Shown here in pieces: positions 30,001 to 64,000 of a DNA stretch of 64,000 nucleotides. Every line of letters begins with the position of its first letter. Position 1 is the stretch's first letter. This DNA is from a virus (lineage: Duplodnaviria; Heunggongvirae; Uroviricota; Caudoviricetes): the IMG/VR virus record IMGVR_UViG_2718218360_000008; one strand, 5' to 3'. Position numbers: made by a program.

Positions 30001-33000
30001 GAACGGCGTTTCGTGTCTCTGCCGGTGTGGCAGCCGAAATGACAGAGCGCGGTCTGGCCAGAATGCAATAACGGGAGGCGCTGTGGCTGATTTCGATAAC
30101 CTGTTCGATGCTGCCATTGCCCGCGCCGATGAAACGATACGCGGGTACATGGGAACGTCAGCCACCATGACATCCGGTGAGCGGTCCGGCGCAGTAATAC
30201 GTGGTGTTTTTGATGACCCTGAAAATATCAGCTATGCCGGACAGGGCGTGCGCGTTGAAGGCTCCAGCCCGTCCCTGTTTGTCCGGACTGATGATGTGCG
30301 GCAACTGCGGCGTGGTGACACGCTGACCATTAACGGCGAGATGTTCTGGGTGGACCGTGTTTCTCCGGATGACGGAGGGAGTTGTTATCTCTGGCTCAAC
30401 CGTGGGCAACCACCGGCAGTTAACCGGCGACGATAAACGCAGGGTGAATTATGGCGATAAAAGGGCTTGATCAGGCGATTGAAAATCTGAGCCGGGTTCG
30501 TAAAAACGCCATTCCGGCGGCTTCAGCAATGGCCATTAACCGCGTGGCCACAACGGCGATTAATCAGTCTTCATCACAGGTTGCCCGGGAGACAAAGGTA
30601 CGCCGGAAACTGGTAAAGGAACGGTCCAGACTGAAACGGGCCACGGTCAGAAATCCGAATGCCAGAATTATCGTTAAACGCGGTGATCTCCCTGTGATTA
30701 AGCTGGGGATCAGGATGCTGGGCCGTCGTCCGGACAGCATACTTAAAGCTGGTCAGCATCGGTATCAGCGGGCATTTATCCAGCGATTAAAAAATGGTCG
30801 CTGGCATGTCATGCAGCGTGTGGCCGGGAAAAACCGTTACCCCATTGATGTGGTGAAAATCCCGATGGCGGCCCCACTGAAACAGGCGTTTGATGAGAAT
30901 ATTGACCGTATCCGGCGTGAACGTCTGCCCGGAGAACTGGCATACGCGCTGAAACAACAACTTAGGATTGCGATAAAACGATGAAACATACTGATATCCG
31001 TGCGGCAGTGCTGGATGCACTGGAGCTGCATGAACACGGGGCGACGCTGTTTGATGGTCGCCCCGTTGTTTTTGACGAAGAGGATTTTCCGGCCGTCGCG
31101 GTTTATCTGACGGATGCAGAGTATACCGGTGAAGAGCTGGATGCAGATACCTGGCGGGCCACACTGCATATTGAGGTGTTTTTACCGGCACAGGTACCGG
31201 ATTCGGAGCTTGATCAGTGGATGGAAAGCCGGATTTATCCGGCGGTGACTGCGATCCCGGCACTGGCAGACCTGATTACGACGATGGTTACGCAGGGCTA
31301 TGAGTATCGTCGTGATGACGATATGGCGTTATGGAGTTCTGCGGATCTGACTTATTCCATTACATACGAGATGTGAGGACGATATGGCAACACCAAATCC
31401 CCTTGAGCCGGTAAAAGGTGCCGGTACCACTCTGTGGGTTTACAACGGCAAGGGTGATGCTTATGCAAACCCGTTGTCAGACGATGACTGGCAGCGACTG
31501 GCTAAGGTGAAGGATCTGACGCCGGGCGAGATGACGGCAGAACCCTACGATGATAACTACCTGGATGATGAAGACGCGGACTGGACCGCGACCGGGCAGG
31601 GGCAGAAGTCTGCAGGAGATACCAGTTTTACGCTGGCCTGGAAACCGGGAGAAGAAGGTCAGAAAGGGCTTATAGGCTGGTTTGAAAGCGGGGATGTGCG
31701 GGCCTATAAAATCCGTTTCCCAAATGGCACGGTGGATGTGTTCCGTGGCTGGGTCAGCAGTATCGGTAAGGCCGTGACGGCGAAAGAAGTGATCACCCGC
31801 ACGGTGAAAGTCACTAACGTGGGCAAACCTTCCGTGGCGGAAGAACGCAGCGAAATTACGCCGGCCACTGCAATTAAGGTGACACCGACATCCGGTACGG
31901 TGGCAAAAGGGAAAACAACCACCCTGACTGTTTCTTTTGAGCCGGAAAGTGCAACCGACAAGACGTTCAGAGCGGTTTCCGCCGATCCGTCGAAAGCCAC
32001 CATTAGTGTGAAAGATATGACAATTACGGTAAACGGCGTGGCGACAGGTAAGGTGCAGATCCCTGTGGTGAGCGGAAATGGTCAGTTCGCCGCAGTGGCT
32101 GAAGTCACCGTTACTGAAGCGGGCGCTGCAGGGTAAACGGAGGTAATACATGTTTCTGAAAACAGAACAATTTGAATATAACGGTGTGTCCGTCACGCTT
32201 TCCGAATTGTCTGCGCTGCAGCGGTTTGATTATATAAAGTTTGTTTCAGACGCAGAACAACAGGAGACAACGAAGCATGATGTCGTGCACATTAACCAGC
32301 GATATCTGGAAACGGCATCCCTGCTTGTGGCGATGTCGCTATGGCATTCCCATTCCCTCAAAGGCACTCTGGCCTCTCCGGAGACAGAGATGCAGCAGAT
32401 CCGCCGTGAAGTGATGCTGGGATGGCCTGCTGATGCACTGAATCAGGCAACGAACCGGGTGCTTTATCTTTCAGGTATGCTGGATAACCGGCACGATGCC
32501 GATCCTGAACAAACCGGTAAAGCAGAAGCGACTGAGTCGGTAACATCAAAAAAGCATTCGAAGGCGAGCTGAACTTTGTCCTGAAACTGGCGCGAGAGAT
32601 GGGGAGACCCGACTGGCGCGCCATGCTTGCCGGGATGACATCCACCGAATATGCCGACTGGCGACGTTTTTACTGCACGCATTATTTTCAGGATACCCAA
32701 CTGGACGCTCATTTTTCCGGGCTGATGTACGCCGTACTCAGCCTGTTTTTTGGCGATCCGGATATGCATCCGGCGGATTTCAGTCTGCTTGCTCCAGCGT
32801 GTGAGGAAGAGCAGACGGAGATGCCGGACGAGGAAGAAATGCTGATGCAGAAAGCGACAGGAGTTGCCGGAGGCGTCCGGTTCGGAGGGGACGGAGGGCG
32901 CGATATTTCACCTTCTGCGGATGTGGTGGATGTCAGCGAGGATGATGTTGCATTAATGATGGCTTCAGCGGGGATTTCCGGAGGTGTGAGATATGTCCCA

Positions 33001-63000: not shown

Positions 63001-64000
63001 AGGGTATCTGGAATTTTTCCGGGAAAAAATAGGAAAACTGCATCTGGCTCAGGGGCTATGGGAGCTGATAGACAACAGCCAGCTTGCGGATGAGATGGCG
63101 GAGATGAAGACCACCATCACGGAAACCCGCAATGAAATCACACAGACGGTCAGTAAAACGCTGGAGAACCAGAGCGCCACTATACAGCAGATACAGCGCG
63201 TGCAGAAGGACACAAATGATGACCTGGCTGCGCTGTACATGCTGAAGGTTCAAAAAACGAAAGACGGCATTCCCTATGTGGCCGGGATTGGTGCAGGGAT
63301 TGAGGATACTGATGGCCAGCCACTGAGCAACATACTGCTGCTGGCTGACCGTATCGCGATGATAAATCCGGAGAGCGGCAACAGCACGCCGTTATTTGTG
63401 GCGCAGGGGAATCAGCTGTTCATGAACGACGTGTTCCTGAAGCGACTGTTTGCGGTGAGTATCACCTCGTCCGGCAATCCCCCGACGTTTTCCCTGACGC
63501 CGGACGGGCGACTGACGGCGAAAAATGCGGATATCAGTGGCAGTGTGAATGCGAACTCAGGGACGCTCAACAACGTCACGATTAATGAGAACTGTCAGAT
63601 TAAGGGGAAACTGTCAGCCAACCAGATTGAAGGCGATATTGTCAAAACGGTCAGCAAGTCTTTCCCCCGCACGAGCACTTATGCCAGTGGCACCATCACG
63701 GTAAGAATCAGTGATGATCAGAAGTTTGACCGGCAGGTCATGATACCGCCAGTGTTATTCCGCGGTGGTAAGCATGAGAATTTCAACAGTAATAACCAAC
63801 AGTCATACTGGTATTCAACCTGCCGGTTAAGAGTGACCCGCAATGGTCAGGAGATTTTTAATCAGTCCACGACGGATGCTCAGGGCGTATTTTCCTCAGT
63901 TATAGATATGCCTGCCGGACAGGGGACGCTGACACTGACATTCACCGTATCTTCATCAGGAGCGAATAACTGGACACCAACAACCAGTATCAGCGATCTG

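Follow-up and report, generated by a model that had tools for sequence, protein, structure and literature searches.

The 64,000-nucleotide stretch of tailed-phage DNA analysed here (IMG/VR record IMGVR_UViG_2718218360_000008, Caudoviricetes; the whole stretch is called the window below) contains two distinct copies of a lambda-type tail gene block, and this repeat is real. The first copy belongs to the canonical O157:H7 Sp11-like lambdoid prophage of the ydfJ (Qin) site (positions 1-44068, called prophage 1 here), and the second to a block of late genes whose closest known relative is a prophage of an O111:H8 strain. We think that there is somewhat better than an even chance that this 22.36-kb block of a second lambdoid phage was inserted, in the cell, into the J gene of prophage 1, and that the structure is not a loop introduced by the assembler. 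The adjacency of the two copies, not the existence of two modules, is the uncertain point.

Two tail modules and the phages they come from

The self-comparison proposed in the first-pass annotation of this sequence shows a long direct repeat. A BLAST search of the window against itself gave two direct-orientation matches, one between 33120-41637 and 55497-64000 (97.1% over 8,522 bp, E=0) and one between 31049-32898 and 53436-55284 (91.6%). A repeat finder run on the window placed the start-to-start offset of the copies at 22,361-22,387 bp and found no inverted repeats within the 64 kb. Copy 2 is cut inside J by the end of the window, and the true repeat may be longer. The annotation had described genes V through J as occurring twice in the same orientation, which is borne out by both searches, with Pfam in support for copy 1 and tblastn for copy 2. 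It had also placed the start of the repeat correctly and assigned its genes rightly, as V begins at 31384 and high identity sets in at about 31359, at the end of U. As for its description of the copies as near-identical, this is true of V and of much of H and J, which are 99-100% identical and include the longest exact run, 1,833 bp within J (38972-40804 = 61333-63165). It does not hold for K, I and part of H, where identity falls to 87-94%, nor for about 220 bp at the boundary between the 3' end of T and the 5' end of H, which are non-homologous between the copies (32898-33120 versus 55284-55497).

The assignment of the left part of the window to the Sp11-like prophage rests on several comparisons. 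Its left 6 kb are 99.9% identical to more than 200 O157:H7 chromosomes, its first 32.9 kb are 99.7% identical to O157:H7 strain 9234, and its left 32 kb are 99.7-99.9% identical to the O157:H7 prophage that abuts ydfJ. Prophage 1 carries a truncated integrase gene, dicB/DicF, a gene for replication protein P and a lambda-type head module. In strains 9234 and 7409 the same prophage runs from stf into three nleG genes, a DinI gene and ydfJ, without a second tail module.

Where those strains have nleG, the window has the second block. It starts 70 nucleotides past the stf gene of prophage 1 and 14 nucleotides inside a lysozyme gene, and it comprises, in this order, the truncated lysozyme gene, Rz, terminase genes, an HK97-like head module, the lambda-type tail module, J, lom and stf. 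Its best match from 44072 to 64000 is a prophage at the prfC site of O111:H8 strain 7-58 72A, whose late region runs colinear with it (99.25% over 19.9 kb), and across 45822-54000 it shows no substitution relative to the O111 prophage L002. The head modules upstream of the two tail copies are unrelated, that of copy 1 being of lambda type and that of copy 2 of the type with a ClpP-protease/capsid fusion. Within the window the second element has no integrase, xis, repressor, early region, replication genes, Q or holin; prophage 1 possesses these functions, with its integrase truncated. A second prophage, as the first-pass annotation had it, is ruled out by these absences together with the 5' truncation of the late genes. 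What it called prophage 2 is a truncated late-gene block joined 70 nucleotides after stf to nucleotide 14 of the lysozyme gene, and the side-by-side prophages that it implied are better read, on the in-silico resolution described below, as a 22.36-kb insertion in the J gene of prophage 1.

The parentage of the copies was followed at informative sites, with the prophage of strain 7409 as proxy for one parent (P1) and the O111 prophage L002 as proxy for the other (P2). Copy 1 matches the tail of the Sp11-like prophage of O157:H7 strain 7409 at 99.92% identity, with only 8 differences, and copy 2 is 99.16% identical to the O111:H8 prophage L002. Of the 638 informative sites in copy 1 up to position 40760, 637 are of P1 type; a patchy stretch follows over 40.8-41.7 kb, after which 63 of the 64 sites between 41926 and 44071 are of P2 type. 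Copy 2 is of P2 type up to 61304 (566 of 567 sites) and from there to the window end of P1 type (83 of 83). Both switch points, P1 to P2 at 40760-40805 in copy 1 and P2 to P1 at 61304-61447 in copy 2, flank the 1,833-bp identical block in J. Each J gene is thus a reciprocal hybrid of the two parental types, and the hybrid tails that the first-pass annotation foresaw as a product of recombination are already present. In both copies the identical block itself has the P1 type. This may reflect gene conversion or gap repair, or the donor may already have carried the P1-type allele, which is conceivable because J alleles are mosaic among strains.

The type switch in copy 1 extends to the genes behind it. 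The lom, stf N-terminal and stf C-terminal proteins encoded next to copy 1 share 100%, 100% and 99.5% identity with their O111 counterparts and differ from the O157 Sp11 type by 3-4.5% in protein sequence. This lom/stf allele is usual on the prfC-site prophage of enterohaemorrhagic Escherichia coli (EHEC) genomes, O111:H8 and O145:H28 among them, where stf is followed by nleG, DinI and prfC.

The structure was then resolved in silico by removing one repeat unit, with the crossover set inside the 1,833-bp block. Over 19,639 bp the deletion product aligns to the prophage of strain 7409 without gaps and with 2 mismatches (99.990% identity). The excised unit is a circle of 22,361 bp, which aligns along its whole length with a single uninterrupted stretch of the donor, positions 20001-42378 of L002 (22,378 bp). 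This simulated deletion agrees with the earlier claim that recombination between the copies would delete about 22.4 kb; the loss would comprise the 3' part of J with lom and stf, the lysis remnant and head module 2. Both hybrid tail modules are unique to the window, the best full-length identities among complete genomes being 99.4% and 99.2%, so one recent event would account for all three novel joints.

The third of these joints is the one between stf and lysozyme. Homology of the left flank stops at 44068-44071, shortly after a terminator hairpin at about 44013-44046, and lysozyme homology begins at 44072, with no sequence shared between the two sides. The left side (the 3' end of J, lom, stf and the next 70 nucleotides) is of O111 type, including three nucleotides, GGA, past the point where the O157 type diverges, and therefore both sides of the join come from the same donor phage type. 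The join fuses the stf end of the donor to the donor's own lysozyme gene, in the b-to-a form of a circle junction or of a tandem-duplication junction. Such a join cannot come from a simple deletion within one integrated prophage.

An inserted block or a false adjacency

Taken together, this is the signature either of a homologous insertion of the Campbell type or of a loop made in assembly. In the former case, a fragment of the donor phage would have circularised by joining its stf end to nucleotide 14 of its own lysozyme gene, and the circle would then have recombined with the resident J through a single homologous (Campbell-type, or ends-in) crossover. Such a crossover duplicates the region of homology, which would be why U/V through J stand twice, in direct orientation, 22.4 kb apart. 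Recombination of the RecA type between the repeats should excise the block again, which would leave the canonical prophage. Lacking its own promoter, Q and holin, the block would presumably be expressed only by read-through from the late operon of prophage 1. The arrangement resembles the integration of circular DNA such as suicide plasmids, in that the direct repeats of homology are each donor/recipient hybrids and excision through them restores the recipient, here in silico with the 2 mismatches mentioned above. Unlike a suicide plasmid, the circle would be a set of late genes of 22.4 kb without a known way to form or persist, and the right flank of the insertion lies outside the window.

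Several observations weigh against an insertion in the cell. None of 5,426 complete E. coli genomes, queried with 7 kb and with 601 bp around the stf-lysozyme join, contains it, and it was not found in GTDB species representatives or JGI metagenomes. Five matches to the 7-kb query that seemed to span the join proved irrelevant, their lysis genes and J being ordered differently. All ten independent contexts of the exact allele of the stf C-terminal gene lead into effector cargo such as nleG, never into lysozyme, and nine of them extend to DinI and prfC. The sequence immediately to the right of the join (44072-45822) holds about 20 single-base indels, 10-20 times the rate elsewhere, and is the lowest-quality stretch of the window. 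No clean relative of it exists, the best being 96.9-97.7% identical; for 44572-45572, in the Rz/lysis region, the best match among the 5,426 genomes is 97.7%, and this kilobase shows 44 substitutions (32 of them transitions) and about 10 indels relative to an otherwise identical O111 donor. As the poorest sequence lies right of the join, the critical joint is the least-supported sequence. The kilobase represents an allele not sampled so far or else a consensus mixed from a multi-copy lysis cassette, and the drop in quality may reflect poor polishing of such a cassette or thin read support at the join. Lastly, an insertion leaves unexplained how a 22.4-kb circle lacking replication genes would form.

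These points lend themselves to an alternative in which the adjacency is artefactual. The host would then carry a canonical Sp11-like prophage and, elsewhere, a complete P2-type prophage; both copies would be real and would not lie 22.4 kb apart. A false stf-lysozyme join, from a chimeric or circularised-fragment read (for example in a mate-pair or jumping library of about 20 kb), would have created a cycle in the assembly graph, which was threaded through the shared J. The uniqueness of the join among complete genomes, its non-homologous b-to-a form, as expected from a circularised fragment, and its position at the border of the most error-dense sequence all fit such a history. So does the unpolished state of the assembly, with single-base indels nearly without substitutions throughout, and parentage switches that coincide with the edges of the longest identical block, the very places at which an assembler, too, would change over. 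Prophage repeats are moreover a documented assembly problem in O157:H7 (PMC4132626). However, misassembly driven by repeats alone cannot make a non-homologous join, and an extra chimeric molecule has to be invoked; the lysis region of a real, normally covered prophage should not be of poor quality; and the structure is coherent, with exactly one donor unit and clean reciprocal hybrids. We therefore rate an artefactual adjacency as unlikely, albeit as a possibility to be taken seriously. An insertion in the cell, which we favour, draws on the same internal coherence. Its fullest form, with the join real and a non-replicating 22.4-kb circle of foreign late genes, produced by illegitimate recombination, captured homologously in the J gene of the resident defective prophage, is a tentative proposal.

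The two remaining explanations are less probable. One of them derives the window from two tandem prophages at one attachment (att) site, as in strain 9000 (NZ_CP018252.2, 2.79-2.84 Mb), followed by a deletion of about 23.7 kb, which would take the nleG cluster, DinI and the integrase, early region and holin of the second prophage, and then by gene conversion in the tails that left J, lom and stf mosaic. Strain 9000 and its Z-series relatives show exactly that tandem order, and the K, I, J and Lom proteins of the two complete tandem prophages of strain 9000 have identical accession numbers, which is evidence that tail modules are homogenised between neighbours (concerted evolution). The boundary at the truncated integrase of prophage 1 (DinI-int', 386-1365) is also 99.6% identical to the boundary between the two prophages of strain 9000, so successive phages have used the same type of att site and integrase at this locus. 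Yet this history needs at least three events, a deletion and two opposite conversions, one of which would have to end exactly at the deletion point. Under this history one would expect neither the canonical prophage, to within 2 mismatches, upon removal of the unit nor colinearity of that unit with one donor segment, and the second block resembles the prfC-site phage of O111 more than it does the second prophage of strain 9000 (99.2% versus 98.7%). We consider it improbable. A simple tandem duplication of one tail module, or one copy written twice by the assembler, would give direct repeats with long stretches of 100% identity, as seen here. It is nevertheless rejected as having next to no chance of being correct, for the copies differ at hundreds of sites, each matching a different natural phage, the upstream head modules are unrelated and the T/H boundary is non-homologous. 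A copy with such differences and such matches could not have been invented by an assembler. The scenario in which only one copy exists, named in the first-pass annotation as what would overturn it, is unlike the sequence for the same reason.

Related systems and implications

The closest described systems are compound prophages of O157:H7. Sp11 of strain Sakai has a lambda-type head, a P-type helicase loader and a disrupted integrase, and most O157:H7 lambdoid prophages are alike (PMC2669165). Sp11 and Sp12 lie in tandem at this locus, where an indel of about 50 kb, due to homologous recombination, distinguished two isolates of one patient (PMC7645076). The window shares with the Sp11/Sp12 compound and the UK 'prophage 8' (PMC2669165, PMC7645076) the ydfJ/rspA Qin neighbourhood and the Sp11 features of prophage 1, as well as long homologous late regions in co-located lambdoid elements. 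Unlike Sp12, the second element here lacks an att site, integrase and early region of its own and consists of 22.36 kb of late genes inside J, and its stf-lysozyme join is seen in no complete genome.

The tandem of strain 9000 and the Z-series (NZ_CP018252.2; PMC8743559) combines the two phage types seen here, ordered and oriented alike, with the tails as direct repeats. Unlike the window, strain 9000 has a complete second prophage. Its repeats lie about 46 kb from one another, with three nleG genes, DinI, an integrase gene and an early region in between; about 23.7 kb of this is lacking in the window, whose J genes differ further in being reciprocal hybrids. By full-length, 100% matches to the DinI-int boundary, this tandem layout occurs in at least 12 genomes (strain 9000 and the Z-series); the larger count of 222 boundary matches is confounded, as the left boundary of prophage 1 matches the same query at 99.6%.

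The recombination mechanism and the assembly caveat are established knowledge for O157:H7, and what is particular here is the insert of late genes only in J with its unique join. Large rearrangements, which arise continuously in culture, in 1-2% of cells, have mapped hotspots at prophage repeats that reach at least 5 kb and at least 98% identity (PMC8743559). In the first (2001) assembly of EDL933, more than 6,000 bases were ambiguous, and phage repeats of over 7 kb were given as the cause of its gaps (PMC4132626). The first-pass view of the repeat as both a recombination substrate and an assembly hazard is accordingly documented for this lineage (PMC7645076, PMC8743559, PMC4132626). Long near-identical prophage modules drive the structural variation of O157:H7, including inversions, duplications and 50-kb indels between isolates of one patient, and they confound outbreak typing based on single-nucleotide polymorphisms as well as genome assembly. 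The window offers a concrete and fully resolvable example, in which the predicted recombination product is the canonical prophage of hundreds of genomes.

If the join is real, a single crossover would have given a defective prophage a whole foreign module for morphogenesis and host range. A second complete morphogenesis set would stand under the resident late operon and the lom/stf host-range genes would have been swapped, all of it reversibly. A late-gene module would then have been captured wholesale between EHEC lineages, from an O111-type donor to an O157 resident.

Sequence quality, gene content and neighbouring features

A caution for annotation follows from the pattern of errors: what look like tail pseudogenes are probably errors of base calling, and no sequence here is less reliable than the critical join. 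The window contains no ambiguous bases. Relative to close relatives, its first 14 kb show four indels and no substitution; likewise, the four differences from the O111 prophage L002 across 45822-54000 are all single-base deletions, two of which break terL while a third fuses a pair of head genes. Frameshifts lacking substitutions are not what neutral decay would produce, and those in J, H, I and terL (Table 1) are therefore most probably single-base sequencing errors. A decaying prophage tail was rejected on these grounds, the disruptions being all single-base indels and substitutions nearly absent, and both tail modules are likely to be intact. Further indel sites relative to relatives lie at 701, 3604, 3626, 3757, 15413, 18444, 20184 and 52438. 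The fused DUF2190/connector gene call at 52127-52726 is not to be taken as a pseudogene.

Table 1. Coordinates of the features discussed, in positions of the window.
Feature	Coordinates	Strand	Remarks	Basis
Tail module, copy 1	31049-41637	+		self-BLAST, tblastn, Pfam
Genes of tail module, copy 1	V 31384-32136; G 32150-32572; T 32599-33012; H 32993-35605; M 35602-35931; L 35931-36629; K 36640-37383; I 37380-37961; J 38208-41685	+	preceded by the 3' part of U	
Tail module, copy 2	53436-64000	+	ends at the window edge	self-BLAST, tblastn
Genes of tail module, copy 2	U 53365-53763; V 53771-54523; G 54537-54959; H 55337-57981; M 57978-58307; L 58307-59005; K 59015-59758; I 59755-60326; J from 60572	+		
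Identical block of 1,833 bp in J, copy 1	38972-40804	+	putative crossover or conversion tract	
Partner block of 1,833 bp in J, copy 2	61333-63165	+	copy 2 of O157 7409 type from here to the window end	
lom	41753-42352	+		tblastn
stf N-terminal gene	42417-43730	+		tblastn
stf C-terminal gene	43732-44001	+		tblastn
Novel non-homologous join	44068-44072	+	left, stf plus 70 nucleotides; right, nucleotide 14 of the lysozyme gene	
Lysis-gene remnant	44072-45822	+	5'-truncated lysozyme gene and Rz	comparison with O111 relative
Head/packaging module 2	45813-53352	+		tblastn
Genes of head/packaging module 2	terL 46238-48359; portal 48568-50070; ClpP-protease/major-capsid fusion 50060-52039; Z-like tail protein 52729-53352		also genes for a DUF1441 protein, a DUF2190 protein and a head-tail connector	
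Head/packaging module 1	22662-31376	+	lambda type; terS, terL, portal, S49 protease, D-like and E-like capsid proteins, FI, FII, Z, U	orthologous-locus annotation; 99.7% identical to strain 9234
Truncated integrase gene	820-1371	-	left end of prophage 1	orthologue annotation
One-nucleotide deletions in terL, module 2	47234, 48254			
One-nucleotide deletions in J, copy 1	40823, 41272		private, in otherwise identical sequence	
One-nucleotide deletions in copy 2	H 56842; I 59907; J 61137, 61195, 61333			

Copy 1 has the lambda order U, V, G, T, H, M, L, K, I, J, and each product falls in the lambda family by Pfam, above the curated cut-offs. The matches are Phage_tail_U, Phage_TTP_12 with Big_2, Phage_TAC_2, Phage_tail_T and TMP_2 with Tape_meas_lam_C, followed by Phage_min_tail, Phage_tail_L, Prok-JAB with NLPC_P60, Lambda_tail_I and the GpJ domains. 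Copy 2 carries the same gene set, as found by tblastn with intact reference proteins. The lom and stf genes sit 3' of J in copy 1, and the corresponding region of copy 2 lies past the window end. Gene order and Pfam families agree for every gene with the lambda tail module (U-V-G-T-H-M-L-K-I-J-lom-stf). Unlike in lambda, neither copy has in its G-T region the heptamer GGGAAAG, the slippery sequence of the programmed -1 frameshift (the search covered this heptamer alone, and a frameshift at a different one may occur); copy 2 has a T allele that RefSeq marks as incomplete, and the head modules differ. At the T/H boundary, the copy 1 allele encodes an intact T of 137 amino acids overlapping an H of 870 amino acids; that of copy 2 (54986-55497) goes with an H of 882 amino acids and is annotated 'T incomplete' in RefSeq. 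In the search of complete E. coli genomes, tail modules of these kinds occurred at 10-15 places per O157:H7 genome.

Prophage 1 is a non-Stx lambdoid prophage. Its truncated integrase gene is abutted on the left by the right end of a preceding prophage, made up of an IS256 fragment and a DinI-like gene at 401-643 (window 1-1371). Two phage tRNA genes, at 14966-15041 and 15142-15218, stand where Shiga toxin (Stx) phages carry stx. One of them has the anticodon CAU and is called Met by ARAGORN and tRNA-Ile in the RefSeq orthologue; the other is Arg(UCU). They are followed here by genes for a TerB-like protein, a DUF3927 protein and a SASA/NanS-type esterase of 616 amino acids (15.2-18.2 kb). Above the Rfam gathering thresholds, prophage 1 also encodes the small RNA (sRNA) DicF (3238-3289, minus strand), the sRNA STnc100 (15988-16160, plus strand) and the sok antitoxin RNA (10498-10672, plus strand), the last of which adjoins a hok gene.

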